Positions 325 through 57,560 of a DNA stretch of 64,000 nucleotides are shown here, one piece after another. Source of the DNA: Yuukianura sp. NJ FZ-2021. Its lineage: Eukaryota. The translations under genes and the position numbers were made by a program. The DNA lies in assembly GCA_046563655.1 (NCBI GenBank), contig CM102283.1, positions 1,302,001-1,366,000 on the forward strand. The letters run 5' to 3'. Below the pieces are notes generated by a model that saw only the letters and a program-made list of their open reading frames with translations, did not search any database and was not told where the DNA came from. How positions within the stretch are numbered: the first letter of the stretch is position 1; each line of letters starts with the position of its first letter.

Positions 325-419
325 TCCAGCCATTTCTTCCGGATAAAACCGAATGAACTATACTATCCACTGGATGTCCACTGGACAAAACGTCAAAAAA
401 TTGATATCCAGCAACTCTG
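325..419 (-). mobile_element. Terminal fragment of a dispersed MITE-like repeat (end CAGwGTTGCTGGATATC)
   Basis: Reverse complement aligns with 9622-9690 (tggac..aa.gtcaaaaaa.t.gatatccagcaac.ctg and ccatttcttcc shared). Confidence 0.5.
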
Positions 420-800
420 TCTAATACCTCTCAGAATGGATGACACTTGACATTAAAAAAAACTTGACACGTAGTCCAATTGATTTTTTTTATCGAAATT
501 TAGTCTGGGTAGACTAATCTATTTGTTCAAAGTTCACTCAAATTAGACCGTTTCAGTGCCTCAACTTTAACAATTTGTATGCAACCTATACTAAAGTGTG
601 GAAAAGGAAAACAATAATCTTGTGGGATACTGATATGACAGGAATTCTCATAAGAGTTCAATATCACAAGACCGATCTCACCAAGATCAAGGTCTCATGA
701 CGTCGAAGAGCTCCGCGTTTTGACGAGTGTCACTTGATTTCACACACATTAGTTTGCAGCAAGGCCGGTTACTCCAACTCAAAAGTTGTTAAAATTGGCA

Positions 801-3269
<2,469 letters not shown>

Positions 3270-3733
3270 AACAATTCTATCATGCCTTTTTTGAAACTGT
3301 CCAAGAAGCAACAACATTATAGAAAAAAGAATTCAAAAATTTGAACATTAAAAATTCAAAAGCGTTCCATAAAATATTGAGATCAGACACAGTATTTATT
3401 AAGTGTGTGCAGAAGCTACTTTACGCATCGGCCTTTGTCTGTCTGTCGGCCCGGTCGGCATTAATTGGAAAACTAGACAGCTGATCACGATTTACAATTC
3501 TGTCTACATGTAAGTAAAACTTCCGCGACAGAAATTTCAAACTCGAAAAGTGACACAGCGACAGTGTAGGTTGGTGGCACGGGCGAAGTGAGAGTTGTAT
3601 TTTTTCCCAACCAAAGAAAAACTTGTTCTTCAGAAAACTTACTTTTCTTTACTTAATAACTTTACTTACTTAAACTTTCCAAGTTCATTATGTCGCAAAA
3701 GTAACTACTAACTAATCGTCCGTTACGTTTAAA

Positions 3734-5203
3734 CTAATGCATTTCTAAAATTTTGTCAGGTTGCCACTTAAACATAATTAGAAGATCAATTGTCCTTATT
3801 ATCAAGAATTGGGCAAAGTAAGGAAATGTTACCCGTGAAATGGATTGTGAAAAGATGGAAAGAGCAAGTGGCTTAAAACTTTTAGCCATTTTTCTGGAAT
3901 AGCGTCCAAAACGTCTAGTACTTCTGTAGTCTACAGGATATCTAGTTGAAACTGTAAGTAGATCAGATGCAAATGTGAGTATTGACCGAAACGTTATAAC
4001 AGTAACAAAACATATTCCGAGTGCTGACAGTGACAACCAAACGCCACAATCTTTAAAGCAATAAATGACACAAAATATGTAGATGGGAATGACAGCGACC
4101 ATTTCAAATACAATAAGAGACCGCCAATTTTGAATATCAACTGCCCGGTTGAACAGCAATTGAATGACACGGTACATCAATCCGAACTTCGGATTCCCCT
4201 TCTGGTATAGGATTCCATGATGGTTATCAGCAGTATCCTTGATGCTCATCTGCAATCTGTTAATGTTTGGTATCTTTACAAGTGTATGACTTACTTAATA
4301 TTCGTCATTTTTTATGTAATTTACCGTAATTGTTCTAAAAGGTTCCGGCACCACTTGACTTGTGCTGATAGATAAATTATAAGGTGGACGTAAAAGAAGT
4401 CAAGCAGGAATGTGACAAACATACCGGTAGTGACACAGATAAAACCCAGGAGATATTGCTTTCCAAAGGCTTTCATGATTTCATTTTTGATAGCCGCAAA
4501 GAAATGAACGTCACTTTCTGCTAGAGCGAACACACCAAACGGAAGGCTAGCCAGAGCAAATGGCGCAATGAGTAGACAAATTTTACCGTAAACTTCGAGA
4601 CCATCATGCTCAAAATACGACTCTGGAAGTACATCTCCTATTATTTATAAGATGAATAAAATATCAAAAATAATATTTGTTATACAAAGTACTAATAATA
4701 TCATTAAATTAACATAAAAGAATAAGCATACCCAAGGATCTCGTAATTTCTGAAATGCTGGCCACTGTAGAGTAGATGCTTTTGTGTTTGAACAGAAAGA
4801 ACAGTTGAAAGGAAACAAGTTGAATAATAATACAGGATACTGTGAATGCAAATATTCTATGGGGAATTCTTAAGTCCGGCGTGAAGAGGTCATATTCCGC
4901 AATGAACATAAGTGATCCCATGTGCACCATAATTAAGATCAAGGCTGTTAAATTTGATAGGATTTGCTGGTATTTGTTACCGCAGGCTATTTCTAACGTA
5001 ACCGCGACATTGCTGACGTTGCCGACCTTGGTTTTGTTGAAATCAATACTAGTGAAGTTGGCCATTTTGACGTTGTAAGCATTGACATTGTTGATGCTGC
5101 TAACCCTAACTGTGTTAACGAGTGACAATTTGTAAACCGAAAGCCCTGTATAGTACCCAAAGTTACCCAAGTACTTCAAACAGGTCAGCGTGAACTGTGA
5201 CAT
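3734..5203 (-). CDS. Divergent gustatory-receptor-like 7TM chemoreceptor, 3 exons (cluster A copy 1)
   Basis: Exons ~5203-4732, ~4639-4324, ~4257-3734; several hydrophobic helices; C-terminal KSFKPL...FLIIRTIDLLIMF typical of GR-superfamily TM7; paralogue directly upstream. Confidence 0.75.
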
Positions 5204-6640
5204 TGTTACGTATGGTGTTGAGAGATTATTGAAACCTATTGCGTTGTTCTTAAAAAACTAAAAAGCTCTTGCATATTTTTTGTTTCTGACTTTGAAATTG
5301 CTGCAGCGCTTTTTTTATATTGTCAAATCGTTGAGCAAGAGGCCAAATCAAATAAACTGATTGATTGATTGATTTATATTGTCAAACATAGTTCTCAGGA
5401 GTTTGATATTTTCGACAAAAAAAACATAAATTCAAGGAAACAAGTTTCATATTTACACTGCTGTTGCTGTAGCTGTGTTCGCAAATTCCCTTCATAATTT
5501 ATTTTGAACGTAATCTTTTGTTGAAACAGTTTGAAAACGGTTTAGGCAATACTATACCGCCCGATTACAGGTAACTAACGAGGCGCGGGAGTTTTAAGAT
5601 AATTTTCCCTGTTTTCATGTATTTTAACTTATTCAACGTTTTTGAAGAAACATTTTGGGAAAATTTTCAAGAAAAACAGCAGCAAGTGAAACGGGAGTTG
5701 ATTTTTTGACGATTAATTTTTGTGAACATGTTTAAACCATAAAAAGGTTTCAGATTATTATCTAGATAAATTCGCAAAGCCATCAAAAATTTAGCCTTTA
5801 TATTACTGGCATGGACATTATTCGTCTACTGAACAAACGTAAATTTTAGTTACCAGGCGTTTTCTAGTAGCGAACCTAATCATCCTTACATCGTTGGAAG
5901 AAGCTTTACGTGGCAGAATAAAATATTACGACTTGCAACAAATGTTCAAAAGCTTGGAGAAAAAACGAAATTTGAGACAGAGTTAATGGACAATACAGAA
6001 CTGACCAATAAAAAAAAAGATGTAATGTAAAACTGTCTGAATTGTAAAACATTTGAAACGGAAAAGCAACAATATTTCAGTAAGATTTAATTTGAAAGTT
6101 TTTAACTTGAAAACTTTACTTTCAAACTCCAAAACAAAAAAATTTCCGGAAAACATTGCGTTGTGAATAACTTGTTATATCTTGTTTTTTTGAATCCGTC
6201 CGTTTTCCCAATTCGAAATATTTTCGACTGGGATGAGTTTCGTTTTCTGTTGAAATTGACAACCTTTTTTCAGCAGTTCCAATCTAAAACGCCTGATATG
6301 TACTTCCTTCAGTGCTTTTCCACGAAGTGAATACAAAAGTCAACAACATTCATTTAAATTTGCTATGCTGGAAGTCATTTGCTTTTTGTGACTCTTAAGC
6401 TTGTTATCCATGATTTAATTTGGGACCGATAATCATGTGACTGCTCAAATAAAACTGAAATGCGCGTTTGCAGTTTCATTCAGGCACTTTTTGAATCACA
6501 AAATTTGTAACTTGTTAACTCCAAATTAGTTATTTTTACTATTCAAGTTCATTGTGTTGCAGCTATAAATACTAGCAAGTTACGAAAAAATACAATCGAT
6601 TTCTAAAATTTTGTTTTAATTTCTACGTGTAGACGAAGTC

Positions 6641-9166
6641 TTAAATTGAACCCAAAGGTTTCCACTGAAATAAAATTAAAAGATCGACAGTTCGTATGAT
6701 CAAGAATTGGGCAAAGTACGGAAACGTTTCCTTTGAAATGGGACGTGAAAGGATAGAAAGCCCGAGTGGCTTAAAACTTTTAGCCATTTTTTTTGAGTAG
6801 CGTCCAATACGTCTAGTACTTCTGTAATCTACGGGATATTTAGTTGAAACAGTAAGTAAATCAGATGCAAACGTGAGTACTGACATAAAAGTTACAAGAG
6901 CAAGAGAACATATTCCGACTGCTGACAATGACAACCAAATGCCACAATCCTTAAAACAAAAAATGAGACAAAATACGTAGATGGGAATGATAGCAACCAT
7001 TTCAAATACAATAAGAGACCGCCAGTTTTGAATATCAGCTACCCGTGTGGCTAGCAATTGAATGGTGCGGTAGATTAACTCAAAGTTCAAATTGCCGTTC
7101 CGGTATACTAGGATATCGTAGGGGCGGCAATCAGCGGTAGTCTTCATGTTCATATGAAATCTGTTAAAGTTTTGCGTCTTTACAAGAGTTTCTAAGATTT
7201 GTTGTTTTTTTTAGGTATGTTACCGTAATTGTTCTAAAAGATTCCAGCACCACTTGACTTGTGCTGATAAATGGATTATAAGATGGATGTAAAAGACATC
7301 ACGTGCAAATGTGACAAGCACAACGGTAGTGACACAGCCAAGACCAAGAAGATATCGCTTTCCAAAGGCTCCCATGATTCCATTTTTGATGCCTACAAAG
7401 AAATGAATGTCGCTTTCCACTAGAGCTACCCAACCAAAAGGTAGCGTCCATAGAATAAGTGCTACGAGAAATATATACATTTTTAAGTAAATTTCGAGAC
7501 CATCGTGCTCGAAATACGCCTTTGGAAGGACATTTCCTAGACATGGAGGAATAAAATACTTTTTATATGAACATAATACAAATATAATATAATTATAACT
7601 AAATAATAACTATAATAATATAATTATAACTAAATAATAACTATAATAATATAATTATAACTAAATAATAACTATAATAATATAATAATACATAATAAAA
7701 ATACTTAAGGATCTCGTGATTTCTGAAATGCCGGCCAACGTAGAGTAGATACTTTTGTGTTTGGACAAAAAGAACGTTTTAAGGGAAATCAATTGAACTA
7801 TAGTACATATTACTGTGAATGCAAAGATTCTGTATGGGGTACTTAAACCAGGCGTAGAAAGGTCATAGGTCACGATGAACATAAGTAGTTCCATGTGCAC
7901 AAAAATTAAGATCAAGGCTATTGCATTTGAAAGGATTTGCTGGAATTTGTTACCATGGTCTATTTCTAAAGTAACATTACCATTGTCGATTTTGACATTG
8001 TTTACGTTGACATTGTTGACGTTGCTGACTTTTGTTTTGTTGAAATTGACACTATTGACGTTGGCAGTTTTGACGTCGTTGGCCTTGACAACGTTGGCGT
8101 CGTTGACCGTACCCTCCTTAATTAGTGACAATTTGTAAACCGAAAGCCCTGCGTAGTAACCAAAGTTACCAAAGTACTGCAAGCAGGGGACTATTTCACC
8201 ACTTTACAGTTTTCACTTTTCAATAATCACTCCGCAGTTTTCAATTTTTGCAAATTGAGGATGAGGAGCGTTTCACCATAACAAATTTCCTTCCGCAGTT
8301 TTCAACCTTTTTTTTTTGAAAAGTGAGGAAGAAAAACTGAGCAAAATGAAGAGTGATGAGTGATGACTCTTCATTTACGTCTCGTAAATATGGATATTGC
8401 ACTACTGCAAATCGAAACTTTAGGTCCAAGTAGAACTTGGTGACCGGGTATGGGAAACCGTCCGTTAGTGAACGCCCATTAGTGACTGTCAATTGGAGAC
8501 TATGCATTGGCAACCGTCGTTTAGTGACCATTAGGATATCGGCCCAACAGTGACCGTTACCCCTTACCTTAAGGTGACCTTCGAAACTCTACAGTCGCTC
8601 TATGTCAGGAATAATTCCCGGATCCTTATGGACAGTAACTTATGGAGCTATACAATTATGAACGGACCCTTATGCACACAGGAAGCCTCCGTAGTTTCCC
8701 AAGGAGGATGTCCCCCGGGTCTGGACAGGGTGTGTGTGTGTGTCAATTTGACAAAATTTTAGTGAAAATTTGTGTAAAAAGCTTATTAGTAAGTCAATTT
8801 CAATCGTTAATATAACATCTCATGACCAAACAGCTTAGTAATGGACGGCAACTCATAAGAATCAAGCACTTTTCAACCTTTGAAGAAGCCCTCGACCTTC
8901 TTCAAAAAAAATTGAAAAGTGCAAAACTTTTCAAACTTTTTGTTGCCAAAGAAAAAGCAGTGAAACACTCTTCACTCTTTTTTAGTGAAAATTTCCTCAA
9001 TTTTCACTTTTCAAAATCAATCCCCAATTTGCAATTTTCACTTTTCAACGTTGTTATGGTGAAATACTCCACTCCTCAATTTTCTCGAAAACATGAAAAT
9101 TGAGGAGAAAAAAGTGCAAAATGAAAAGTGGTGAAATACACCCCAGGTCAGCGTGAACTGTGACAT
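6641..9166 (-). CDS. Gustatory-receptor-like chemoreceptor (cluster A copy 2), coding sequence interrupted by a transposon after codon 7
   Basis: High similarity to 3734-5203 in all exons; the start MSQFTLT lies at 9146-9166 and the continuation CLQYFGNFG at <=8186, separated by the 8187-9143 insertion. Confidence 0.75.
7583..7690. repeat. AT-rich minisatellite, ~31-bp unit (tataataatataattataactaaataataac) x~3.5, intronic
   Basis: Direct tandem copies visible; absent from the equivalent shorter intron of the paralogue (4640-4731). Confidence 0.85.
8187..9143. mobile_element. Non-autonomous DNA transposon, PIF/Harbinger-like, 957 bp, 3-bp TSD CAG
   Basis: TIRs GGGACTATTTCACCACTTT / AAAGTGGTGAAATACACCC; CAG duplicated at 8184-8186 and 9144-9146; subterminal IR tttcaccataacaa (8271) / ttgttatggtgaaa (9051); empty site seen in the paralogue (~5181). 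Confidence 0.9.
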
Positions 9167-9270
9167 TGTTTGGTATTGTATTGAGAAAAAATTGAAAATC
9201 ATTGTGTTGTTCTTAAAAAAAATAAACCACAGTTCTATGGAGGGAGTTCGGTGGCAAAATTATTTTAAAG

Positions 9271-9457
9271 TTTCGCGCGTTAAAACATGTTCCGCCAGTT
9301 AAAAACTAACGTTTTCGCGTATTACTTTAATGCGCGAAAACTTTTTTTAATTGCAGTAATTTTAATTGCAGAAAAATTTTAACGCGCGAAAAAGTCTAAG
9401 CGTACGTTAACGGAACGTACGCTTAGGAAACGTACGCTTAGAAAACTCACGCTTAGA
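9271..9457. repeat. Nested short inverted repeats (tttcgcgcgttaaaa / ttttaacgcgcgaaa; ctaagcgtacgtt / aacgtacgcttag x2-3), probable MITE remnants
   Basis: Palindromic arms read directly from the sequence. Confidence 0.5.
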
Positions 9458-9621
9458 ATGCATGTCCAATAGAAATCACATTGCCAGAACTGATCAGAAT
9501 TAGTATTCTGTAAATTATTATTTATTGTCTATTATTATTTATTATTTATTATTTATTGTAAACTATAAAACACTTCTTTTCTCATATGCTTTGTAAAGTT
9601 TTCAAAAATGTGTAGCCCCAT

Positions 9622-9690
9622 ACAGTGTTGCTGGATATCCACTTTTTTGACATTTCGTCCACGGCTGGATATCCACAGGAAGAAATGGAC
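9622..9690 (+). mobile_element. Terminal fragment of the same MITE-like family as 325-419
   Basis: Begins TA|CAGTGTTGCTGGATATCC; matches 325-419 in inverted orientation. Confidence 0.5.
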
Positions 9691-9959
9691 GAATCCAAAG
9701 GGTGCAGATTTGCCCGCGGGGTTTGAAATACTTAAATCCAAAAAACTTAAGCAATTCAAAATACCGTACAAAAACAAAGGAAATGTCGTTTTTCTAAGAG
9801 TTTTAAATAAATACTTAGTTTTAGCAACAAAAGAAACTCTTTTTGATCTTTTTCGTCCACTCGTCTCTGCAACCTAAAAATTTGAGATTAAACAAATCCA
9901 TTAGGAACAATTCCGGAATTACCTCTCACCCGCAACTTCTCATTAGTATATAACAGATT

Positions 9960-11448
9960 TTAAAATTTACGATAGTAGAGGATAAATGTGATTGTATTGT
10001 TTGCAATGGCATCAACAATTATGAAAATGCTCATATATGAAATAGTGTACACGTGACAGCCTTCTACTTTGCATGGACGGATCGCTTTCAAGGATTTTCT
10101 GTAGTACAACTTTCGTTCCTTACGCAGCCTACCGTTCCAAGCAAAATTTTGGCGCCATTTTTCAATCCACTTTTCCGACTTGGTGCGAATGGAAGCCGCG
10201 TTGAGATAAAATCTAAGCGTGCCCAGGAGACTACACAATGCAAAGAGCAATAGACTAATTGCCAGCACGGCCGATTCTTTTTCTACAACGCTGAATCCAA
10301 ATGCCATTGTGACATTTACCATTCCAATCAATGTTAAAAGTGCAATGATTTTGTTGTGAGCGATATTGAACAGACCAATCAGGATGCGGAGACAGTTGAA
10401 TCGTGATAGGTTAAAGGTAGTACATTCCAGAACATGATTGGATAGCACCGAGTACGACATAACAAAAATTGACATTTGCGCAATTGCAGTATATACTTTC
10501 ACTAATGAGAAATATACTGCCCATCCACCGACAAGTTCGCTCACTATTGCAAAAAAACTGACGACATTATGAGGAAGTGGAATAAAAGGGAAAAAAACTT
10601 TGTTCAAAATTTTGACAACTAAAAGTGCATCGTTGTGGTAGAGAATTAGAGAGGCAACCATGACCACATTCAAAAAGCCAAACCACGTTACATCGATCCA
10701 CAGCATTTTTGAAAAGTTTGTTGTCAGTAGGTCACTCCAATAGCTTTTCGTTTCTGAAAATTTCAAAAAAAAAAGTTTTCATTGAAAATTCCAAGTATAG
10801 AAGATGTGAACATTATTTCTAACACAGAAAATGGTCATGTTTGAGTTCGAAGGTCCGAACTTGAAGTACTAGTGAGCATCAGCTAAAAGAGTACACTCAT
10901 ATTTTGTTTCCATAGAAACGAGTTAAAACTTATATAAACATAAGGGGAACGCAAATTCGAAATTGAAAATTTAGTTCTGTTATGAAGGAATTTTGAAAAT
11001 GCGTTATTTCACTCGTATCCAATCCACAGTTTCGAAATTAAACAAATAACTGACTTTTGCGTTATAATATTACAATCCTATTATATATTTTTAAAAATTA
11101 TCAACCTTTGTCAGAAATGATAGCATAATGAATGGAATTGAGCACTTGTAGACGTTCTAGTGCGTTCGCATTGCCTGTAATGTCAAATACGAGAACCATT
11201 ACTGCAATAGGGATTAAAAAATGAACAAATTTTTCCGCAGATGAACTGAACTCAAAGCGTTTAAACAGAATGTAGACGATGATACTGCTCAGTACGAAAC
11301 AAAAGTCGGCAAAAATCCAAAACCGATACATTATATTGTACTTTCGTGAAGTATCAATTTTTCCTGTTTTAGTTCCATTTCGTGAAACTTTGAGTGGAGA
11401 GTTATACGTTATGTTTGAAAAGTTTAAAATTTGGTAGTACAGTTCCAT
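9960..11448 (-). CDS. Divergent gustatory-receptor-like chemoreceptor, 2 exons (cluster B copy 1)
   Basis: Exon 1 MELYYQILNFS..ISDK|GT (~11106), exon 2 from ~10753; multi-TM; C-terminal KAIRPCKVEGCHVYTIS...NNTITFILYY. Confidence 0.75.
10871..11048 (+). mobile_element. Degenerate copy of the Tc1/mariner-like MITE at 52779-52993 (intronic)
   Basis: agtgagcatcagctaaaa..tacactc.tattttgtttcc.tagaaacgagtt...ccacagtt.cgaaattaaacaa is collinear with the intact element. Confidence 0.75.
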
Positions 11449-12739
11449 GGTGACCTCAGTTTTATTACTGCGGAGACAATTGCAAACTGAAAAGTTGAAA
11501 AACTTGAGGTTTTGTGTTTTAAAATAAAAGCCCAAAACTGTCCTTGATCTTAGTCGTCAACTGTATTGTTTCAATTTACAAAATTACATGGCATTAGAAC
11601 ATCCGGAACTATGCACATCATGTTATTTCTTATTAGGTGGTTTTTTGAAATTTGGTGTCATCATTTTTTTGTGGATATTTCAGATACTCAGACAAAAAAG
11701 ATGAAAACATTTTTTTTCCATAAATAAGCTAAATTGGTTCATCCTTTTTGGTGTTTTTATAATTTGAATATGCAAAACCTTTTTAAGAATGTTCTTCCTA
11801 TTTTGAAAACGGGCGGGACGCTAAGTTTACCCTGGTTTGCAATTTTTTGTAAACTTTCTTTTTGGAAACCATTTACATTTCAAGGACTTACAAAATTGTT
11901 TCCTAGATTGATAAACAACTTCTAAACAAAACCGTAGTTTAAGCTTTAAAATGTCATGTACCGAGTGCTCCATAGTGTACATAAGTGTACATAGTGTACA
12001 TATTTAACTAAGCTTTCGAAATTTTAAAGTGTCTATATATGAAATTTTTTCTTTGGAATATTTCACAGACTTTGGAGTTATTTGAAATCATAAAAAACTG
12101 AAGCGATGTGGCAACACTAAAATTAATAAGGCAAGAGAAACTCTGACTTTGCAAATAGCTTTTCTAATATTTTTCTAACAGTGAAGTGAAACTATGACTA
12201 GCATGTGTTAATATTATATATTATATTGTTAATATTTATGTCAAACTATTTTAAACAGCTGTAAAAGATACTCTGAAGTGAAGCACAATGGAGTTCAATG
12301 AAGTGCACTATGTTGACACGTAACGAGAAAATAGAAAAATTTCAAATCAAGGACGGCAAATGTATTTTATTGACAAAAATTACATTTTTTATGAATAAAC
12401 TGAAAGTTATATTGACCTTGAATCGAATCAAATGAACTTTGCAACTTTCATTTAACGAAAGTCATAGATCTTTAGTACTCATTCTTAGGAATCCAAAGCA
12501 TACTGCGCATGCTTACTGGGGCTTCGCCTTTTCCTGTTCGTTTGTTATTATTTTTTAACATATCAAATATCCTTTTCCAAAATACACTACAAGGTTAGAA
12601 GTTAAGTTGTATTTTAAAGAAGTTTAGCGCAAAAATCATCACTACAAGCTAAACATTTAAGATTAAACTAATCATTTAGGAACAATGCAATTCCGAAACT
12701 CCCTCTCACCTGTAACTTTGTATTAGTATGTAGCAGATT

Positions 12740-14195
12740 TTAAAATGTACGATAATAGAGAATAAATGTGATTGTATTGTTTGCAATGGCATTAACAATA
12801 ATAAAAATGTTCATGTACGAAATTGTGTACACGTGACAGCCTTCTACTAAGCACGGACGTACCGCTTTCAAAGATTTTCTGTGGTACAGCTTTTGTGCCT
12901 TGTCCAGCCTAGTGTTCCAAGCCAAATTTTGGCGCCATTTCTCAATCCACTTTTCTGATTTGGTGCGCATTGCAGCCGCACTGTCATAAAACCTAATCAT
13001 GCCTAAGATACTCCAAGTCGCAAGCAGCGATAGACTAATACCCAGCACGACCGATTCATCCACAACGCTGAATCCAAATGCCATTGTGGCATTTACCACT
13101 GCATTCAGTGTTAGAATTGCAATAAGGTTGCCATGGGCGACATTGAACAGACCAATGAGCATACGGAGACAGTTGTAACGTGATTGGTTAAAGGTAGAAC
13201 GTTCCAGAATATGATTAGATAGCACAAAGTAAGACATTTCAAAAATGGATATTTGCGCAAACACAGTGTATAGTTTTACGGCTGAAATGTATATTGCCCA
13301 TACGCAGCCAATTTGACTCAGTATTGCAGAAAATGTTACGAATTCAAGTGGAAGTTGAACGGAAGGAAAGAATACTGTGTTTAAAATCTTGACAAATAAA
13401 AGAGCATCTTTGTGGTAGAGAATTACAGATACGATTATGAACGAATTCAAAAATCCAAACCACGTTCCATGGATCCACAGTATTTTTGAAAAGTTTGACG
13501 TTAGCAGGTCATTCCACAAGGTTCTAGTATCTGAAAATTTAAGAAAACAATTTTTTTTAGCTCAAAGTGCACTTTTGGTATATGCGTTTTGTATTAAATG
13601 TATTATATAGCATTGTACATATAATATAGATAATATGTGTATTATAATCACACAGTTAATTTGCATAACTAAAAAAGTCTGGGGAGTGACGTCACAGATT
13701 TGGAATTGACCAATCGCGGGAGCCGTTACAAAGCGGACAAAAGGAGGCGGGGCTTCCTAAAATCCATACTTTTCACAATTTTCAAAACTTTTGTATAAAA
13801 AAAACGGTCTAAAAATGTTAACTCTATACTATATTTTATAAAAATTATACACCTTTGTTGGAAATGATAGCATAGTGAATGGAATTGAGTACTTGAAGAC
13901 GTTCTAGGGCCTTTGTGTTTCCAATAATATCAAATATGAGAACAATTATTGCAATGGGAATTAAAAAGTGAACAAATTTTTCAGCAGATGAACTGAGTTC
14001 AAAGTGTTGAAACAGAATGTAAATCATGATACTGCCCAGTACGAAACAACAGTCAACCAAAATCCACAACCGATACATAATATTGTAAGTGCGCGAAGTA
14101 TCAATTTTTCCGGTTTCAGTTCCATTTCGTAAAACTTTGAGTCGAGAGTTATAGGTTAGATTCGAAAAGTTCAAAATTTGGTAGTACAATTCCAT
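12740..14195 (-). CDS. Gustatory-receptor-like chemoreceptor, 2 exons (cluster B copy 2)
   Basis: Paralogue of 9960-11448 with the same intron position; ORFs 13845-14195 and 12740-13530. Confidence 0.75.
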
Positions 14196-14690
14196 GCCGA
14201 CCTCTGGTTTACTACTGAGGAGAAAATTGCAAACTGAAAAGTTAAAACTACTGTGCTATTTTACCATTAAAATGCTTTTATTGAAAAATTGGCCTTGATC
14301 TTATTACCTTAAACTATTGTTTGCTTTTTCGTTCCAAATCTATTTAAAAAAATTTACATCGATTTAACAATAAAATACCACGCGTACATACATTTTGTGG
14401 TTTTAGAAGGAAAGTTTTGTAAAGAAGACAGCACAGTTCGTGTTTTTCGGCTTTTAGAATTCAAAAAAGTTAAACTTGTTTAAAATATTAAAGTTACCTC
14501 AATAGGCGTAGTGTCCTTGTGAAGTTTTTCTTTGCAATCATAAAAAAAATGAGGCGATGACATGGCAAGACTGGGATCAATAAGATGTGAAAAATTCAAT
14601 AACGCTGAGAACAGCTTTAACATATTTTTTTAACAGCGAAATGAATAGCTTGACTATCACGTAATTATTGTGTACTTTAAGCATCTGAAA

Positions 14691-15487
14691 CTACTTACAA
14701 TAAGCAATAAATGTAATGGCATTGTTCGCAATTGTGTTAATTATGATGGAAACATGTACGTACGTAATAATATACATATGACAAACTTCTACTCTACATT
14801 CACGAAGTGAGTTAAACGTTTTTCCCATGTAGATCCTTTTTGCTCTGTTACGCTCCCCGCTCCATGCAAAATGTTGGCGCCATTTGTAAATCCACTTTTG
14901 GGAATTGGCTCTTATGGCAGCCGCAGTGCCATAAAAGTTGAGCAGCCACAACAATGCTAACGTTGCAAATAGCACCAAACTCCCAGCGAGCACGGCCGAT
15001 TCGTCCAGAACGCTGAATCCATATGCCATTGTAACATTTACGACTAAATTCAGCGTCAGAATTGCAATGAGGTTGCGATGAGCGTCGTTGAATAGACCAA
15101 TCAGAAGACGGAGACGATTGAACCCCAATCGGTTAAAGTCAGTTTGTCCCAAAATGTGATTTGAAAGAGCCGTGTATGCCGTAACAAAAATTGAAATTTG
15201 AGCAAGTGCGGTGTAAACCTTGGCTCCTGAAATTGCAATAGCAACTACTGCTCCAATTTGACCAAAAGTTGCAGAAATTGTTACGACTTGTGGTGGAAAT
15301 ACTATAAAAGGAAGCACAAGTTTGTTCAAAATTTGGATGAGTAAGATAGAATCTTGATAGAATCTTCTTGATACATGATGTAGATCCCGGTAACAAAAAT
15401 AATTAGAGTTGTCGCCCAAATTCCATGAATCCAAATCATTTTTGATAAGTTCAATGTGAGGAGGGTTTTCCACAGATGTTTGGTGGC
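14691..15487 (-). pseudogene. Chemoreceptor pseudogene (cluster B copy 3): exon 2 only, frameshifted
   Basis: Homologous to exon 2 of copies 1 and 2; an 11-bp tandem duplication gatagaatctt (15345-15366) breaks the frame; no MELYY-type exon 1 before the PAQR3 3' end. Confidence 0.7.
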
Positions 15488-16104
15488 TGAAAATTTGTTA
15501 AAATGATAAAAATTGCGTAGTTAAGGCAATGCTATTATACATGTATTATGCATATATATAAGAGTCTTGTCACTAGAGATAATTTAAATGAAACTTGTAA
15601 AACTATAAAGTAGCTTCACTTCATGTATTTCACCCAAACTATCCCAACGAAGCTGCGTTATATTTCTCTGAAGTAGTATGTATTGTACTTTTAGTATAAT
15701 ATATATTATACATTTGCATACATATAATATACTTATATTGTATATACCTTTGAGCTGAAACTAAATACTACACTACGCTAGACAAAATCTAAGTTGGCCC
15801 AGTAAAATTCTTTCAAAAAATAAACTGGTTCTTGCCGGAATTCCACCTTACGAAATCAAAACTAAGTATTTTTTATATTAATAGTAACATAATCTAACAA
15901 CATAATTTATACACAGTTGAGTGAAATTGGGTGGAAGTATTTGGACTAACCTAGTCAGGGTCTAATCTAAACTAGATCTATTTCTTTCCTAAACTTTCTT
16001 TGAGTTAAATTGCGGTGTGTCAATGGTATTGCCGACAGTTTTGTGAGCATTTTTTAACATCGACTGAACGTGACTAAATTTGGCGCCAAATGTTTTGAGT
16101 ATTT

Positions 16105-20050: not shown

Positions 20051-20150
20051 NNNNNNNNNNNNNNNNNNNNNNNNNNNNNNNNNNNNNNNNNNNNNNNNNN
20101 NNNNNNNNNNNNNNNNNNNNNNNNNNNNNNNNNNNNNNNNNNNNNNNNNN
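20051..20150. other. Assembly gap (100 N)
   Basis: Run of N; identical 14-mer cagtaagtgtttat on both sides. Confidence 0.99.
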
Positions 20151-20688: not shown

Positions 20689-22448
20689 ATGGCTCGTAGT
20701 GTTTGTTCGATTTTCCTCGAAGTCATTTTGACAATTTTCTCCTTAGCAGTTTTTTGTGTTATTTTGCTCCCGCTCCTTCTCGTGCTCTTTGGATCATGTC
20801 ACGCGTGGAGACTGTTGCTGATTGCCTGGGTGAAATTATTTCCCAAAGGACGGATACGAATCATGGGAGGTCAGAATCCAGTGGTTGCCATTGACGACCT
20901 CCAGAGGCCGCTGTCCACACTTGTTGGCATGGGGGCCTTTGATGGACAATTTGACGTTTGACAGTGCCCTTGAGTACGTATCGGCAGTTGTCAACGCAAA
21001 GGACGCTTCAGGTCAACTCCTAAATCCAGAGTTCCATCAGTACTATGAAGAGTGGTTTGGATTCTTATGGTGGAAGTGGGAGGGAGAATTCAAACTTTCG
21101 GATCATGTCAAGTTATGGGACACTGGTGACAGGATATCTGAAGAGATGGATGTTATTAGCATCATTTCGTACCTGGAGAAGTTGGCATTTCCAAAAGCAA
21201 AAAGTCCATGGGAGGTCATTGTCCTCAGAAACGTCCATCTTTGCGGTGTCAAGGACGAGCAAGAGCCAAAGACGCTTATAATTTTTAGGTAACATTTCAA
21301 AAACACCGGGAAGATTTTCAAAAAAAAAAAATTAAGTTCAACAACAACTTTGAATTAAAATCCAGAAAACTTTAGTTGTGAATTTGTTTTGGACAGATTT
21401 CATCACGGGTTGGCCGATGGAATTGCGGTGATGCAGTTGTTTATGAAGTTTGTGTTTGACGATGAATTTGAAAAAGTCGCGCGTCCAAAATACATTGAAC
21501 GAGACAAATGTCAAGAAAAACTGCGTCGTTTGCTGGCGATTGTACAACTGCCGTATGAATTTTTCAAGCAGAGTATAACTGCGTACGATGTAAACGAGTG
21601 GCATTTGCCAGAGAGACAACTTAAGCGCCAAGTTTCAAAAGCCTGGACAAAACGTATTCCGATTGATGTCATCAAGCAGGTCAAGGTCGCTCATAACGTC
21701 GGGTTCACAGCCGTACTCATTTCGGCCATTTCCGGAGCTATTCGGGAAGTTATGATTGCAAACAAGGTTCAACTTCCAAGAAAAATTCACGCCATTCTTC
21801 CTCTTCCTTGGCCAGGGCACCCTAGAAAACTTTGCAATCACTGGTACAATCTCACCTCAATCTAAATTTAAACAAAATTAAACAATAATTAAATGTTTTT
21901 TATATGTAATCGTACTTATTTTATTTCTAATTATTTTAATAATTTATTATTTTGCTTAACTATTTAATCATAATTTTATTTTTCAACTTTTTAGGAGTTA
22001 TGGCTTCATAACGCTTCCAGTTGGAACTGAAAATAGACTGAAGAGACTAAAAAAGTGTGAGAAGTACGTGACACAACTCAAGAAGTCAGTAACCCCTGCC
22101 GTGAACTTTGCCATATTGAAGATGTTTAACAGCCTGCCGACTTGGGTAATTCGGAATATGACCTTGACCAACTACTTTCCCACGGTCATCTTGTCCAACT
22201 TCCCTGGACCCCCTCCAGGAACAAAAGGCGTCGGAGACTTCCCATTGGTCGACAGTTGCTTTACTGGTGGACCACTCCGCGGAAGCATTCCGATCAGTAT
22301 TACCATTCTCAGTTACGACGGATTTCTACGCATCGTCCTTGGCGTAGATGAAGCCATTTTCCCAAGGTATGAGATGACGACGCACATGATTCAAAACATT
22401 GAAAGTGAATTTCAACTGTTGAGCACCACACCGACGGACGTACCGTAA
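20689..22448 (+). CDS. Wax ester synthase/diacylglycerol O-acyltransferase (WS/DGAT)-like protein, with an apparent 1-nt frameshift at ~20950
   Basis: N-terminal TM; KSPWEV..., spliced R|FHHGLADG (HHxxxDG catalytic motif), LSNFPGP, ITILSYDG C-terminal motifs; 3 exons. Confidence 0.85.
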
Positions 22449-29717: not shown

Positions 29718-31258
29718 ATGTTGGGCAAAAGGTCGTTGAGGGCTTTTCGAAAAATTTTGAAAATTGCTAACTTTTTGCGCCTTAATACCATGGTTGTCAC
29801 TGGGAGTCGAGGAGAAACTGATGCGAAGATGGAATTAGTTGCAACGAATCCAACAACTTCGCTTTTGCGGAAATTTGAAATTTCGCGCCTCGGATTCAAG
29901 GTCATGATGGGTATGATTTTTGGAAATTTTATTTTCGGAGCAGTGCGGATCATCCAGTCGATCGCCTTTATGGACAAACCTTTTCAAAATATTATGTTTC
30001 AAGTGTTTGTCCAGAGTCTCAATCTTCTCTCATGTACAATCAATTATACAATGCTTGAGAGTATGGATGACTGGGCTTGGAACATCTCAGCATTCTTGGC
30101 CTTGGAGTATCGCTTGACGCGTAAAACAAATTTTTGGGTTTTGTTAAATTAAATTTTATCAATTTAGCGTGTGAACTAAATTTTTTCTTGAGATTTTGAG
30201 TAATTAACGTCTTTTCCCTCTCTCATAATTTTTTTAAACTTCATGCGCAAATTAATTTTAAACATTTTAGGAAGATATCAAATTCGACCAGTTGGCGACC
30301 GAGCCTTGAAGTATATAATATTCTTCACGGTTTGCTGTTTGGCCGAAATTCCTTCAATCATGATTTTATATTTGGCAAATATGGACAAACCTGTTTACCT
30401 CGGATCTTTACGGTATTATCTACCACTGGACTACGTGGTTACCAACTACTTCGCTTTTGTCGTTTTCTTTGTCCATGAACTTCTCATGTTATTGGGTACG
30501 GTTTGTGGGACACTCGTACTTTGCTACATGTATATTATGCTCTTACAAAGCGGTCGTTTCTGGCTAGAGGAACTTGGGTGAGTAAAAGTGCTTTTACGGT
30601 AAAATTAAAAAAAATTTTTTTTTAAATTTAAACCTTTAACATTAATCTTCATTTAAAAATCTTTTTCAAAATATTGATAGTACCATTTGCTATTTCTCTT
30701 ACTTTATTTAGTCCACATCGACACAAAACTACTAACCGAACACCGTCGACTTTGAAAAAATCTCATTCGACGCATAGTGACTTACGGACATTTCCGATTG
30801 CCTTGAACACTATTCACTCCTGGCAAATCCTGTTGACCTTCTACGACAAATGCGCAAGAAGCGCCATCATTGGTCAACATTTTGCCGTCCCTGCTGGACT
30901 CGTTACTTGTACTTTTTCCACAATTAAATTCTGGGGTTGGCACAACTTTGAATCCATCCCGGCCGCCCTCTCTTACCTCGTGTTTCCAGGAGGAACTGCT
31001 ATCTTCATTACCTGGATTGCTCTGGTTCAGCCTCAAATGGCAGCGATCTATGTCACTTCTACTCGCATGAAAAACAGGCTGTATACGAATTTAGAACGGG
31101 CGGAGCCACGGGAACGAGAATACCAACGACGCTGCATTCGGTCGCTGAGAAACATTCGCGTGGTGCTGGGCTCATTTTTCCATTACCAGACAACAACAAT
31201 GCCACAAGTTCTGGACGAGTGCGTTGACAACACGATCGATCTTCTGGTGGCATCTTAA
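29718..31258 (+). CDS. Gustatory-receptor-like chemoreceptor (cluster C copy 2), recent tandem duplicate
   Basis: Highly similar to copy 1 in all three exons and in ~80 bp of 3' flank. Confidence 0.75.
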
Positions 31259-31362
31259 CTTTACCGTAGTTCTCCAAGTAGTAGACCAAAGTAAAACAAA
31301 ACTCAACGTCTATTTTATGGTTGAATTTTATTGATATTTTTGTAATCTGTGGTTCCATAATT

Positions 31363-32504
31363 TTAGCTAGAATTAATCGATTTTTCCATGAGAGGTTCCT
31401 GTGAAGAGTCGGGAACTGGAGTAGTTGTGGTGATCGGTACCTCCGGAGTAGTGGTGACAGGTACCTCAGTTGTGGAGACGGATACATCAGTAGTAGTAAT
31501 GGGTACTTCAGTTGTAGTAGTCGTAAGCTCTGTCGTAGTGGTGGGTACCTCAGCAGTAGTAGTGATGGGTATCTCAGTTGTAGTGGTGGGTACCTCAGTA
31601 GTGGTAGTGATGGGTATCTCAGCTGTAGTGGTGGGTACCTCAGTAGTGGTAGTGGTGGGTATCTCAGTTGTAGTGGTGGGTACCTCGGTAGTGGTAATGA
31701 TGGGTATCTCAGCTGTAGTGGTGGGTACCTCAGTAGTGGTAGTGATGGGTATCTCAGTTGTAGTGGTGGGTACCTCAGTAGTGGTAGTGATGGGTATCTC
31801 AGTTGTAGTGGTGGGTACCTCAGTAGTGGTAGTGGTGGGTACCTCAGTAGTGGTAGTGGTGGGTATCTCAGTTGTAGTGGTGGGTACCTCAGTAGTGGTA
31901 GTGGTGGGTATCTCAGTTGTAGTGGTGGGTACCTCAGTAGTGGTAGTGGTGGGTATCTCAGTTGTAGTGGTGGATACCTCAGTAGTGGTAGTGATGGGTA
32001 TCTCAGTTGTAGTGGTTGGTACCTCTGTAGTGGTAGTGGTAGTTATCTCAGTTGTAGTGGTGGGTACCGTAGTGGTGGGTACCGCAGTGGTGGTGGTGGG
32101 TTGCTGAGTGGTGGCAGCAGTTGTTGTGGGTTTGACAGTTGTCGTCGTCACGTTGTGTGGATCCACCGGCGTTGGTTGCATTGCTACAAGCGTACAAAGA
32201 AAAGCCTTAAATTTTTCAAAAATCTGGTTTTTGAAATACAGAATTCCAAAATTCTGTCTTACAATGAGCAATTACGGTAGCCACAATTGCACAAACGGCA
32301 GCCACTGCTACCACTGCTCCCACAATCTTGGCAATCCGAATCCACTTGTCCCGCGAAGCAGGAGGTTCACTTCCGGGCAAAAGACGTTCTAAAATCACAA
32401 AATAAGGTTAAAATTTTTACTATTTCCAAAGTGAAGAAATAAAAAATTTCAACTTTCAATGCGTAAAATGCATTCGGTGTTGCTTTACCTTGATCTGAAT
32501 TCAT
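31363..32504 (-). CDS. Type II membrane mucin-like protein with Thr-rich TTTTEVP/TTTTEIP repeats, 3 exons
   Basis: MNSDQ|ERLLPGSEPPASRDKWIRIAKIVGAVVAVAAVCAIVATVIAH| (signal anchor) spliced in phase to the 31363-32183 repeat exon. Confidence 0.8.
31490..32097. repeat. Coding tandem repeat of alternating 21/24-bp units
   Basis: gggtatctcagttgtagtggt / gggtacctcagtagtggtagtggt repeated >20 times. Confidence 0.95.
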
Positions 32505-46583: not shown

Positions 46584-47974
46584 TCATTTTTGAAAACACA
46601 AAAGATCGATGACATTTGCTATAATGACGTCCTTCATTACAGACGGGAATGTGCTTTTTTGAATGACGGTAGAATCTGAAATGTGGACGCGGACTGCACG
46701 CAGACTCTTGAGTGACATGGTATCCAGGCTCGATAATTTGTATCTTCGCGCCGTTATCAGAATTTTACGAAAATTGATCGAGCATTCGTAAACTTCCGCG
46801 GCCGAATCCATGATGTCGTTTATCAATTTGAGGAATCCCGCCGCTAAGCCAACGGCCACAACCGTCGTTGCCACACCGCATTCCGGCGCACAGTAAATTG
46901 TGCAGAATAGCATTGCGATGATACATGAATATCCAACTGTCAGTTCCGCACAAAACCAGTGGCGCCACTCGGTGTTGAACTGTTGAACTATTAGTTGTAC
47001 CATTTGGTACAACCGCATTTACGACAAACTGTCACAGTTCTCTCTATAAATGTCCAGAAAATTCTCCCTCTCAAGAAATTCTAAAATGTCAAGAATTATA
47101 ATGCAAAATATTTTGAAAAATGTAAAAATTACGTGCTAGTGGTTGTCGCTAGGATCTTTTGAGCTACATGGAGCGACATGACCACTGGTATTATGTTGAA
47201 GATGAAAATGAATTCGAAGGCCACCCAAACCATCACAACTGCAACAAATCCACCCGCGAAAATAAAGTAAAAGTCTCCGAAGATTTGTACGGCGACCAAT
47301 TTAATGATCTTGAACGCATGTGTTTCCAGCTCAAGATGGACGAGCATGCCAAGTGGGATACATGGAATTGTCAAGATCATGAGTACCAGGAACACTGCAA
47401 CGGAATTTCCTGTGTCACTTTTCAATTTTGATTGCGGAGAAATTTGTCCTGTTGGAATATTTTTTATTACAATTTTGTGAGGGTTCGCATCGCATCAGTA
47501 TAAAATCTTTCTACCGAAATACCTATGTTTTAGATAGCTAATTCTTCTATAAATGCTAAAATCTTAGGAATCGGTTGTAACTAAACGCAAGTAATACTTA
47601 CGCAGTTCTTGAGCCAGTTCGAGTATTTTCTTCATAAAATCAACGTTGGCTGCGGCGTCGAAGAAAACTTGGAGTTGGAATAATATACATTCCGTGATCC
47701 AAGTGCACATCACAAAAGTGACAATTCGTTCCTCAGCAGGGATATTTGGTGTCAAGAGGTCATAAACCAGCGCAACAATGATGACCAGCAAATGGATCAA
47801 TACCGAAGCTGCGATGATAACCTTGAACAAGCACTTGTTCGAACCGTCTAGACCGGCTTTGACGACCTCATCACCTGAAGCAGTTTTAGAATAAGCGAAA
47901 TAGTACGGTACCACTCCGTAGCGATGGCCGAGATTAATAAAGCCAAAAATTAACGATAGTTGTCCGAAATTCAT
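46584..47974 (-). pseudogene. Gustatory-receptor-like chemoreceptor, probably pseudogenic
   Basis: 3 exons, C-terminal KSLRAVRVHIS..IIANVIDLL; in-frame TAA at 47019-47021 in exon 3, and exon 2 donor phase does not match the obvious acceptor. Confidence 0.6.
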
Positions 47975-49750
47975 GTTTCAGCGGTTTCAGTATCGTAGCA
48001 GTAGAATTCAGTTGGCGTTTTTTATGAGATGTCAACTGAATTTAAAAACAAAGATTAACATTAATTTAGGTCTAATTACTCTACGAGGCCAATTTATGGA
48101 ATGATGTAGCAAAGAAAACTTGTCTCATTATTAGAAGGCAAGGAAAAAAGGAACTTTTTGTCTTTGCTATTTTTTGCCTATTAAATATTACAGTTTTCAA
48201 AGCAGCAGATATAAAAAGAACTTAAAACTTTAGTTCTCTGAATGATTCAATGAGCTATTCTTTCATTTGACGTCAAATATGAGAACATAGCAGTCTAAAG
48301 TTTGAGGTGAGCCTTTAAAATAAACTTTTCTAAACGGTGAATGTAAGCTGAAGTAGTTAATTTGATGCGGGCTCATTATTTTCAACCTTTGACACAGCCA
48401 AAATTTGACTAACCCAACAACGCCATTGTAGTGACCTTATCGAACGGCTTGAATCATGAAATAACATGGTAGTTTTTCCACATGAAAAAATTCTTTGGTT
48501 AGCTCAATAATGATTTGTCAAAAATTCAAAAAACTGTGAATTATTTAGTACATGGATTTAAATAATCCTCGTATAGATAGTTACTAGCGTTTTTTCCCGT
48601 CCAGGACGACTTTAGCAGAACCCATAATATGTTCTGCAAAAAAATAAATTTTTTGAAGGTTACCCGACCTATAACATAACGTATACCTGACTAAACACTC
48701 CATTGAGAGTCTAATTGCAAACCGAAATATAGAGCGAAATATAGAATATAAATATAGATTCTATATTTGTATTTTATATTTTGAATTACGAAATATTGCA
48801 CAATTTACACGAAGAAAAATACAAATATTAATATGAATATCAAACTCGTGAGTCCTGATAAAACCAGAAGAAAAAAAAATATCACCCTAATTTTTCCAAT
48901 TCGAATCAAAATTTGGGGGATGATAATCCCCTACGGATATCTCGAACCCCCCAAATCATCAGCAATATCTAAAATTTCTTGATGAAATCTACCGAAGTCT
49001 CAGATATACCTAAAATTTCTATTTGATTAAATCTATCTTAAATTTTTTTGACTTGGCGTCTGTTCAAAAATCATGGAACGTTTGACCTTGCAATCCGAGA
49101 ATTTGTCCCACTTGGACCCCATGTTTGGCCAGTATTTGAAATGACTTCCTTTCGAAAATTTTACACAAGTTTCTATACGTCTTCATCTAGTTATCCTGAA
49201 AATTTCATTGGTGAAACATTTCAAGTACACCCATTTCTGCCAGGCCCAAAACACGTCGATAATCGAAACCCTCCTTTCAAATAAAAAACGTCCTTATTTA
49301 AAACAGAAAAGGAATCAATTTTGAAAAATAATATGGAATGTTTGATTCAAAAGTGTGCTGTTTATAGTTGAGCACATAAAGAACATAAATCAGGAAGAAG
49401 AGAAGAGAAAGTTTGCTACACTTTCTTCTGAAAGTCTCGAATTCCGAGAAAACACGACTACTCGCGTCTCGGCAACTCTTTCACTTTCTCGCAAATTTTT
49501 TGGCGCTGTTCGTCTGTGTTTTCTTTTCATCTGCATCCTGATGATTATAAGTTCCGAAGAAAGTGTGGTTCTGCACGGTGGTTTTCGCCCCATTGGGCTC
49601 CACACTTTGCAAAATCAATTTCCGCTCTCTCAAATCATACTTAATTCAAATGAAACTCATGTGATTCATAACTTATAACCTAATTTTAAAGTGAAATTTA
49701 TCCAGAATTTTTGAATAATTTTGAAAAGTGAAAGTGAAAGCGGGGACTTC

Positions 49751-54684: not shown

Positions 54685-55586
54685 ATGCAAGCGAACAAGC
54701 TAAGGTCTGTCTACAAAGCGATTTTGAAGTTGCACCGGTCATTGCCTGCGGAGTTGAGAGGTGAGTCACAGTCAGGTTTTTGTGTAAATGTGATTCTTAG
54801 CTTCCCGTTTTTAACGAGTAGAAAATGTTCTTAACGTTCATCACTCCAAATATTAATTGGCTTTAATCGTTCAAGTTTAATTAGCTTGTGCTTTTAATCT
54901 TCCAGAGCTTGGAGACGGATACGTTAAGGACGAATTCCGACGGCATGTGAAGGGGGCGACAGAAAACCAAGCCAAAATATTCATGACAGAATGGACGGTA
55001 ACGAACTCTAAAAAAATTATTATGCCTACAGCCCCCTGCAAATGGCGCCCATAGCAACCAACGCAATTTTTTGTTTGTGACGTCACCAGCTGAAAAATAC
55101 CGTAATCGTAAAATCGTAAAATTGGAACCCGCTGGCATTTATGTAAACAAGATGTGTCTTACGGGTTTCTATAGGACACCACCAATAATTGGCAGAATTC
55201 CGGTATTTTCAGCCGGTGACGTCATTTTTTTTTCCACATGGCAACCAAACAAATTTTCCATTCGCACTACCTAGTAGTATTCTATTTACCTTGTTATGCC
55301 TATGTATGATTCTGCTGGTTAGGATTTTAACGTTGCTCTATTGGTTTGACTGGAACAGGATTATTTCAACACTTTGGCTAAACAATTGAACGTGAAGGAT
55401 AGAATAGCAGCGTCTACGGAAAGGGTGACTAATGTTAGTGATTTGGGCAAAGCCATTCCTCTTGAGAAACTGGAAGATTTTCAAGCCGAGCAAATCTATC
55501 AACTGTACGATCTTAAGTTGGCAGCGACGTCACAAACACAGTCAGAATCCAAGAATGATCATCCTTCTTCAACTACAAAGCTTTGA
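54685..55586 (+). CDS. SDHAF3: Succinate dehydrogenase assembly factor 3 (ACN9/LYR family), 3 exons
   Basis: MQANKLRSVYKAILKLHRSLPAELR|ELGDGYVKDEFRRHVK..FMTEWT|DYFNTL..LG..LEDFQAEQIYQLYDL. Confidence 0.92.
55078..55225. repeat. Intronic inverted repeat (24-25-bp arms), MITE-like
   Basis: tgacgtcaccagctgaaaaataccg ... cggtattttcagccggtgacgtca. Confidence 0.7.
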
Positions 55587-56089: not shown

Positions 56090-57560
56090 ATGGACTTCAT
56101 TCAGTTTAACAATGGGAAGTTAATGCCAATCCTCGGACTAGGTTGTGGATTGTTACAGGTCAGTGATTTACTTCACTAAATTTTAATTTTTAAAACATCT
56201 TAAATTGTGTCTTTTCAGACAACAGACGAAAACGATCTGACTGCAATACTCGACAAAGCACTGGAACTGGGCTACCGACATTTTGACACGGCTTATATGT
56301 ACGAAAATGAGCATATCCTGGGCAGAGTTTTCAAGAAGTGGATTGATTCTGGGAAAATCACGAGGCAAGATCTCTTCATAACGTCAAAGGTCAGCATAAC
56401 GTCAACAACAGTAAACAATTTATAGTTATATTAGCTGACTTAAATCGAAGATTCCATTTCTATTTTTGTAGCTTCCTTGCAATGGGAATCGACCGGAACA
56501 CGTACGCCACTTCCTTGAGCAGTCCCTAGCTGACCTTCAAATGGACTACGTTGACCTTTACCTCATCCATAATCCAATTGCCTATCAATGGGTCAGTGAC
56601 AGAGCCTATATACCCAAAGGACCGGATGGATTCGGACTTCTGGACATGAGTTCGGATTTGCACGCCCTCTGGAGCGCAATGGAGAAACAAGTGGAAGATG
56701 GTCTGACGAAATCCATCGGACTTTCAAATGTTTCGGCATCTCAAGTGCGCAGAATCTGTGAGTTCCCTTCTACACGTATCCTTCCAGCCAATGTCCAAGT
56801 GGAGTTCCAACTTTACTTTCAACAAAAGGAACTGCACGCAGTTTGCAAGGAATTTAACATCTCAATCTGTGCATACGGACCACGTAAGTTAAAGTCCACA
56901 AGTCTATCTTAACTGGAAGTTCAACTTAACGGGTTAAACAACGTCATCTACATGTATTATTTAGTCGGAAGTCTTCGGCGGGAGACGACGCCGCTATTTA
57001 TAAACAGGTAGTTTTTTGCAACTTGAATTTTGAATTCAAAAAGTTTTTTTTTAAATCGTTTGACATGAAATGTTTGCTTGTTTACAGATTCAGATCTCCG
57101 AATGTACTCCAGGATTCAACTGTAATTGAACTGGCAAAAACGTATACAAAGACTCCAGCACAAATCCTTTTGCGCCACTTGATTCAGCTCGAAGTGGCTC
57201 CACTTGTCACAACAAGAACTTTGGACCGTTTAGTGGAAAATTTTCAGGTTTTGTTTTTCGTTTTTGCAAGAATTTCAGTTTTCGAAACTTCCGACTTTTT
57301 TTTTATATTTTCGGTTTTTTTTCTAGGTTTTTGATTTTGAGCTGGAAAAGGGTGAGATGGAAACATTGAACAACCTTGACAAGGGTGAAGCCGGAAGAAG
57401 TTTTAGATCAAGCATTCATCCGCCAGGGTAAGAAACGTCATTTTCAAGGAAATGGTTAAAACAAAATTTAAAAATTACTTTGTTGTTTTAAAGTGCTGAA
57501 AAACATCATGAATTCCCATTTCCTCCGAAGCCGATTGAAACAGAAGCCGTTGCACCCTAA
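56090..57560 (+). CDS. Aldo-keto reductase family 1-like, multi-exon
   Basis: MPILGLG, GYRHFDTAYMYENE, DLFITSKL, DYVDLYLIH, KSIGLSN, PANVQVE; D-Y-K-H catalytic tetrad present. Confidence 0.93.

Follow-up and report, generated by a model that had tools for sequence, protein, structure and literature searches.

The interrupted gene and the inserted element

The subject of this analysis is a minus-strand gene of contig CM102283.1 (assembly GCA_046563655.1) whose first coding exon is interrupted by a 957-base-pair (bp) DNA transposon, together with the neighbouring paralogue that preserves the uninterrupted site. Throughout, "the window" means the whole stretch analysed, that is, the 64,000 nucleotides (nt) at contig positions 1,302,001 to 1,366,000, and all coordinates refer to it. 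The intron borders of the interrupted gene were placed by paralogue comparison and frame continuity only. In the following list, which runs along the gene strand, upstream and downstream are likewise used in the sense of the gene.

9144-9166, minus strand: start of the gene, comprising the ATG (9166-9164), codons 1-7 and two bases of codon 8
9144-9146, minus strand: upstream copy of the target site duplication (TSD), CTG on the gene strand and CAG on the forward strand, from the paralogue comparison
8187-9143, minus strand: non-autonomous DNA transposon with terminal inverted repeats (TIRs), 957 bp, recognized from the TIR pair, the TSD and the paralogue's empty site
9110-9143, minus strand: TIR at the gene-strand 5' end, beginning GGGTGTATTTCACC, which contains the proposed donor GT (9141-9140) and a second GT (9139-9138)
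8437-8527, no strand assigned: repeats internal to the element with a 14-nt period (family D2, five copies at 14-nt spacing)
8187-8220, minus strand: TIR at the gene-strand 3' end, ending GGTGAAATAGTCCC, which contains the proposed acceptor AG (8192-8191)
8184-8186, minus strand: downstream copy of the TSD, CTG on the gene strand and CAG on the forward strand, from the paralogue comparison
7705-8183, minus strand: rest of coding exon 1, with the native-exon acceptor AG (8178-8177) and an asparagine- and valine-rich (N/V-rich) repeat (7955-8123)
7224-7536, minus strand: putative exon 2, from paralogue comparison and frame continuity
6641-7160, minus strand: putative exon 3, with the stop codon and three hydrophobic segments, the last of them at the extreme C-terminus
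3734-5203, minus strand: tandem paralogue of 435 codons in three putative exons, uninterrupted at the insertion site, from the alignment and the empty-site sequence

The insertion can be read directly from the alignment of the two genes. Positions 7694-8187 correspond to 4721-5184 and positions 9144-9220 to 5181-5257, so that the aligned segments are contiguous across the insertion point and the paralogue holds a single copy of the triplet, reading ...CTGACCTGTTTG... across its empty site (equally given as ATGTCACAGTTCACGCTGACCTGTTTG). In the interrupted gene the triplet stands on either side of the element, which splits codon 8. A paralogue that is continuous exactly at the element, with one copy of the triplet, is the signature of transposition, contrary to what a mis-join would leave. 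Similarity to the upstream region of the paralogue does not extend beyond 9220, some 55 nt upstream of the ATG. From the perfect TSD and the undamaged host frame we infer that the insertion is young.

Among the 88 inverted pairs found when 7800-9600 was examined, the longest joins 8186-8220 to 9110-9144 (35 nt, 86% complementary). These TIRs are imperfect, measure 34 nt given a 3-bp TSD (34-35 nt overall) and carry GGG at both tips; beyond them a weaker inverted similarity (about 75%) continues for roughly 100 nt. At TIR positions 4-5 the gene-strand 5' end has GGGTG and the other end GGGAC, and these two positions are among the five that are mismatched in the 35-position repeat. The terminal base of the element is identical to the one adjoining the TSD, so that a 4-bp TSD (CCTG) is formally possible; the 3-bp TSD is the more economical reading, as the longer one would give the element unequal termini. 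The longest open frame inside the element has 115 codons and the element is non-coding, while short repeats of the TTTTCA or CACTTTTC type gather near both of its ends.

When the element and one copy of the TSD are taken out, positions 9166-9144 and 8183-7705, 7536-7224 and 7160-6641 join into an open frame of 444 codons, as compared with 435 in the paralogue. Between the two genes the synonymous divergence (dS) is 0.43 and the ratio of nonsynonymous to synonymous divergence (dN/dS) is 0.46. The original prediction, made from the letters of the DNA, had described a 957-bp element with a CAG TSD inside codon 8, an empty site in the paralogue, TIRs that differ at positions 4-5 and a gene that looked otherwise intact, and each of these features was recovered here.

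That prediction had also compared the TSD with the CWG duplications of some Harbinger elements, and the comparison holds: the CAG TSD and the GGG termini fit the NuwaI group of the PHIS (PIF/Harbinger-ISL2EU-Spy) superfamily as characterized in the sections of PMC4482050 cited here. Those sections give NuwaI elements a 3-bp CWG TSD and TIRs measuring 12-61 bp, in most cases with GGG at the start, place them mainly in animals, and name fish, beetle, crustacean, mollusc and anthozoan hosts (PMC4482050). The present element shares the 3-bp CWG TSD, read from one insertion site, has GGG-initial TIRs of 34-35 nt that lie within the 12-61 bp range, and has the build of a short non-autonomous derivative with subterminal repeats. 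It differs in that no transposase partner is seen for it (none of the 41 window frames scanned against Pfam contains a transposase domain), and the fit is one of structure. In TSD and TIR, the element fits the structural criteria of NuwaI.

The gene family and other copies of the element

The interrupted gene is probably a member of a tandemly duplicated, lineage-restricted family whose products have seven hydrophobic segments. Members in the window lie at 6641-9166, 3734-5203 and 46587-47977, and for none of them was a Pfam family or a full-length homologue found. In a hydropathy profile of the 444-residue conceptual protein there are seven hydrophobic peaks of 19 residues each, of which the last covers residues 418-436; they describe a topology and are not specific to any one family. 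Pfam searches with three exon frames returned no chemoreceptor family (nematode serpentine, or insect-type 7tm_6 and 7tm_7) at E up to 1, and the 38 members of our alignment (A2) matched no Pfam family; a profile search of solved structures with the same alignment gave 0 matches at E up to 10. Word-based homologue searches for longer proteins, with a single exon or with an alignment as the query, found none.

A full HMMER search with the C-terminal exon of the three window paralogues was more productive, with 37 matches at E up to 0.001, three of them at 1e-10 or better. Fragments of 108-199 residues account for 35 of the 37. The ten matches that were looked up come from environmental or Logan assemblies and are unnamed, except for one "hypothetical protein", and no Pfam family was found in the 13 short matches scanned. 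Two long matches (P0004 and P0030) owe their similarity to many repeated stretches and were excluded from the alignment. Members share a pattern at the very end of the protein, LKSCxPL..G..I.K.TFP.I..D.I....I.LL..F, which may be reminiscent of the last helix of insect-type gustatory receptors. The name chemoreceptor, which the original prediction had given to the gene, finds no backing in Pfam; it is a guess for which the topology of seven hydrophobic segments is the sole support. The family may itself merit description.

Within the 64-kb window there is no second copy of the element. Exact matches to the 14-mer at the core of the TIR are the two TIRs themselves, and four more sites have one or two mismatches (1.66 expected); the best of these near-matches, at 55362, sits in unrelated sequence and was set aside. 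A 19-nt TIR pattern occurs at 114 metagenome loci, which should be regarded as chance matches because blastn with the whole element finds little beyond the pattern itself, namely one 91-nt match at 71% (L050). A stricter 29-nt TIR pattern matched nothing in either genome_contigs or viral_contigs.

Contigs from four DNA runs belonging to two studies were matched to the window at 80% likeness. Three of the runs (X1-X3) represent one sample of organism A and the fourth (X4) represents organism B. In both organisms the element has many matching contigs with a likeness of 80-99%, and joints inside it (8372>8457, 8528>8595, 8630>8837 and 8660>8839) resemble those of deletion derivatives. One copy from organism B starts to match at 8184 and hence includes the CAG, which lends weak support to a CWG TSD. 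In X1, contig depths are 376-3485 in element bins as against 70-688 in gene bins, values that are not to be read as a copy number. Paralogue contigs run continuously across the insertion site in both organisms (8182>9147, with ACAA or ACAT between; 8182>9148; 8187>9195). A further contig, present in X1 and X2, joins 8183 to 9144; it skips 960 nt, four letters fit either side, and its junction letters are those of the gene's empty site. Its depth in X1 (73.2) equals that of a contig that also skips 7955-8123, and it is therefore ascribed to a paralogue or to a structurally different allele.

Several repeats lie in or next to the interrupted gene. The N/V-rich coding repeat of exon 1 (7955-8123) has a 15/24-nt periodicity and differs in length among paralogues, several contigs skipping 124-169 nt and the window paralogue being 10 codons shorter. 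Putative intron 1 contains a 31-nt unit repeated 3.5 times at 98% identity (7584-7690). The 5' flank (9175-9700) consists of very high-copy repeats, with a summed contig depth in X1 of 9,900-168,000 per bin versus about 60-90 for single gene contigs. Palindromic 15-nt units are found at 9395-9457, and 9622-9675 is similar to 371-420.

Candidate splice sites and neighbouring features

On the gene strand, the boundaries of the element read ACC TGG G|GTGTAT at entry and AAATAG|TC CCC TGC TTG at exit, and both the GT at 9141-9140 and the AG at 8192-8191 arise from the two mismatches at the TIR tips. The original prediction proposed that splicing at these sites would restore the frame, in the manner of an introner, a DNA transposon that brings its own splice sites. 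Conceptual excision of 9141..8191 (951 nt) does give the predicted product, MSQFTLTWVPCLQYFG, translated as MSQFTLT-WVP-CLQY, which is 9 nt longer than the uninterrupted frame, in phase and stop-free. The proposed junction, from 9143 to 8190, is right at 8190 and wrong at its other end, where the last exonic base before the donor is 9142.

Other pairs of candidate sites lie close by. If 20 nt of flanking exon is allowed, there are six GT..AG combinations, two of them in frame. The second of these joins 9140 to 8176 and would yield MSQFTLTWG|YFGN, 3 nt shorter than the uninterrupted frame; its donor, GTATTT, is the hexamer of the gene's own putative first donor, and its acceptor, CTTGCAG, is native to the exon. 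As a control for chance, the insertion site was filled in turn with 5000 pieces taken at random from the window, each 957 nt long, and 19.8% of them had any GT..AG within 10 nt of both ends.

The strength of the sites was judged with a crude matrix built from 9 donors and 11 acceptors predicted from the window paralogue pairs and domain-bearing genes. Training donors scored 3.8-7.9 and training acceptors 3.1-11.2, against which the candidate sites compare as follows.

Donor 9141 (GGTGTAT): score 6.1, partly circular because this heptamer belongs to the training set; rank 2 of 68 in the region
Donor 9139: score 2.4; rank 25 of 68 in the region
Proposed acceptor (exon resumes at 8190): score -4.4; rank 47 of 56 AGs in the region
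Acceptor native to the exon (next exonic base 8176): score -0.4; rank 27 of 56 in the region

Neither TTTCAG nor TTTAG occurs on the gene strand of the element, AGs that score above the proposed acceptor exist inside it (e.g., 8720 and 8485), and its last 60 nt are purine-rich on the gene strand. As the ends of the element are inverted repeats, the 3' end of the opposite orientation would be purine-rich too, so that the element family appears ill equipped to provide a 3' splice site. The motif TTTTCAG, by comparison, precedes four putative exons; the window holds 37 occurrences versus 25.6 expected, a mild enrichment in that 4 of 100 shuffles reach 37.

The remainder of the window holds the following features. 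A second tandem family of three minus-strand genes, with no Pfam family, spans 9960-15497 and has large exons at 9960-10778, 12740-13561 and 14691-15497; its putative introns, about 320-350 nt long, end in TTTTCAG, and one of its putative donors, GTGTAT, is the same hexamer as the donor proposed for the transposon. At 31059-32280 there are overlapping long open frames on both strands, four in all and 246-327 codons in length, with no Pfam match. Other neighbours encode a carboxylesterase (1844-3269), a WS/DGAT-type acyltransferase (20834-22448), a PXA-PX sorting nexin (49715-52572) and an aldo-keto reductase (56472-57334). A scaffold gap of 100 N lies at 20051-20150, and no Rfam family was found in the window.

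Interpretation and known systems

We consider it probable that one gene of a redundant family has received a young, ordinary insertion of a non-autonomous element of NuwaI-like type, the GT and AG being by-products of TIR divergence. A cut-and-paste non-autonomous DNA transposon would have entered the first coding exon of one tandem-family member, and the dinucleotides near its ends would reflect ordinary divergence of the TIRs (5 mismatches in 35 positions) instead of an evolved intron device. Any rescue of the message would then presumably come from general host activities, be they cryptic spliceosomal sites or "SOS" excision directed by pairing of the TIRs, and not from the design of the element; in a family with several paralogues, losing one copy would be tolerable. 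By itself the interrupted allele would be disrupted, because reading through the element meets a stop after 42 codons. The caveat attached to the original prediction, that this might be no more than a recent knock-out allele, is the simplest reading.

Several observations weigh against so ordinary an account. With both candidate sites inside the element, splicing would in every case leave behind 6 nt along with the 3-nt TSD, and these 9 nt would be frame-neutral in every codon phase; the retained CTGGGTCCCCTG is, moreover, stop-free in all frames. The element in its opposite orientation yields no GT..AG pair, and in its real orientation the pair is in frame and stop-free. Such an in-frame, stop-free pair was present in just 4.6% of the random pieces described above, and the donor GGTGTAT is the putative donor heptamer of an apparently intact neighbour gene near 13850. 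Finally, a host frame free of decay is also what one would expect of a tolerated, spliced insertion. The GT..AG configuration is uncommon, yet it is not remarkable for a feature noticed after the fact.

Most of these observations, together with the origin of the GT and AG in the two TIR mismatches, speak for an introner-like element, in which a transposon family would have evolved asymmetric TIR tips that supply a GT as well as an AG in one orientation; removal by the spliceosome would leave three codons (9 nt) behind, and exonic insertions would be tolerated. This reading could further appeal to a precedent of the same design in Aureococcus, set out in the part of PMC9860276 cited here, and to the statement in the cited part of PMC12130899 that about 82% of classified introners are TIR DNA transposons. 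The case for it comes from one examined copy, in which the would-be intron ends in a purine-rich stretch at an acceptor that ranks 47 of 56 and is outscored by AGs within the element, and a single GT/AG pair is unremarkable in TIRs mismatched at five of 35 positions; introners are, besides, reported in only two animal groups in the section of PMC9860276 used here. We therefore think the introner reading improbable, and slightly more so in its full form, in which the element would be one copy of an introner family with the asymmetric tips fixed, each exonic insertion adding exactly three codons in any phase. Judged from the DNA, the transcript may meet one of three fates, of which the introner-like one is the least favoured because the proposed acceptor is weak.

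SOS splicing is a somewhat better candidate, if still a rather unlikely one. Here the TIRs would pair in the pre-messenger RNA (pre-mRNA) and the element would be excised imprecisely, in or near the repeats and independently of the spliceosome; some products would be in frame, the allele would be hypomorphic and not null, and the GT and AG would be irrelevant. The minimum-energy and centroid folds of 8150-9180 on the gene strand, both computed in silico, pair the two TIRs, and the insertion is exonic, in an N-terminal part of the protein whose adjoining repeat region varies in length among paralogues. According to the part of PMC12779559 cited here, published targets include repeats from non-autonomous elements, and pairing suffices even for scrambled repeats. 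Set against this, the TIRs are 34-35 nt long at 86% complementarity as compared with the 54-nt repeats of Tc1, the repeat properties required are left undefined in that part of the paper, and its authors find recent exonic insertions to be rare and seemingly purged (PMC12779559). That repeat mis-assembly placed the element in the exon is very hard to credit: a scaffold gap does occur in the window (20051-20150), the element is multicopy by contig matches, and no contig bridges the exon-element junction among the matches listed (32 of more than 2600), but a clean duplication of 3 bp, at the very position across which the paralogue runs uninterrupted, bears the mark of transposition and not of a mis-join.

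Taken as an ordinary young insertion, the locus is a clear instance of a Harbinger-related non-autonomous element of NuwaI type within a coding exon, whose empty site a paralogue documents. Should complementary DNA (cDNA) show precise removal, it would instead be an SOS-splicing substrate found in nature and not in a laboratory allele, or an introner whose TIR tips carry both splice sites; the latter, if true and if the host is an animal, would be a cut-and-paste, Harbinger-related introner where introners are reported to be rare. Either route of removal bears on how genomes tolerate exonic DNA transposons and on the origin of new introns.

Among the known systems with which the element can be compared, removal of Tc1 from the pre-mRNAs of C. 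elegans was reportedly described in an older paper by Rushforth and Anderson (1996). SOS splicing, as presented in the cited sections of PMC12779559, involves AKAP17A, CAAP1 and the RNA ligase RTCB and operates in C. elegans and human cells. According to the same sections, 90-100% of host mRNAs lose the exonic Tc1, Tc3 or Tc4 in this way; the process requires the TIRs to pair, and it works with scrambled repeats provided that these pair (PMC12779559). Excision takes place within the repeats or close to them, seldom at GU-AG, and leaves just a part of the products in frame (PMC12779559, same sections). The present element resembles these substrates as a DNA transposon in a coding exon with TIRs able to pair, whose removal at the RNA level could partly restore the frame; it differs in its shorter and imperfect repeats, for which pairing alone is predicted.

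Introner elements of Micromonas have a 3-nt TSD and short TIRs, are MITE-like (MITE, miniature inverted-repeat transposable element), take one splice site from the element and co-opt the other from the TSD, and leave the length of the mRNA unchanged, in the account given in the cited portion of PMC11282704. The 3-nt TSD, the short TIRs and the link between a MITE-like DNA element and intron creation are points of likeness, whereas in the present case the element contains both candidate sites and the mRNA would retain 9 nt. Closer still in layout are the introners of Aureococcus, in which both splice sites lie in the element and element bases plus TSD add 12 bp, or four residues (PMC9860276, legend to Fig. 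2F-G). There, many spliced copies have transcript support and the addition is 12; here, a single copy read from DNA has a poor acceptor and would add 9 nt. The two agree in being TIR/TSD elements in a coding exon, with GT and AG inside the element and a residue that is a multiple of three, and the design in which both splice sites belong to the element and codons are added is thus already known from Aureococcus.

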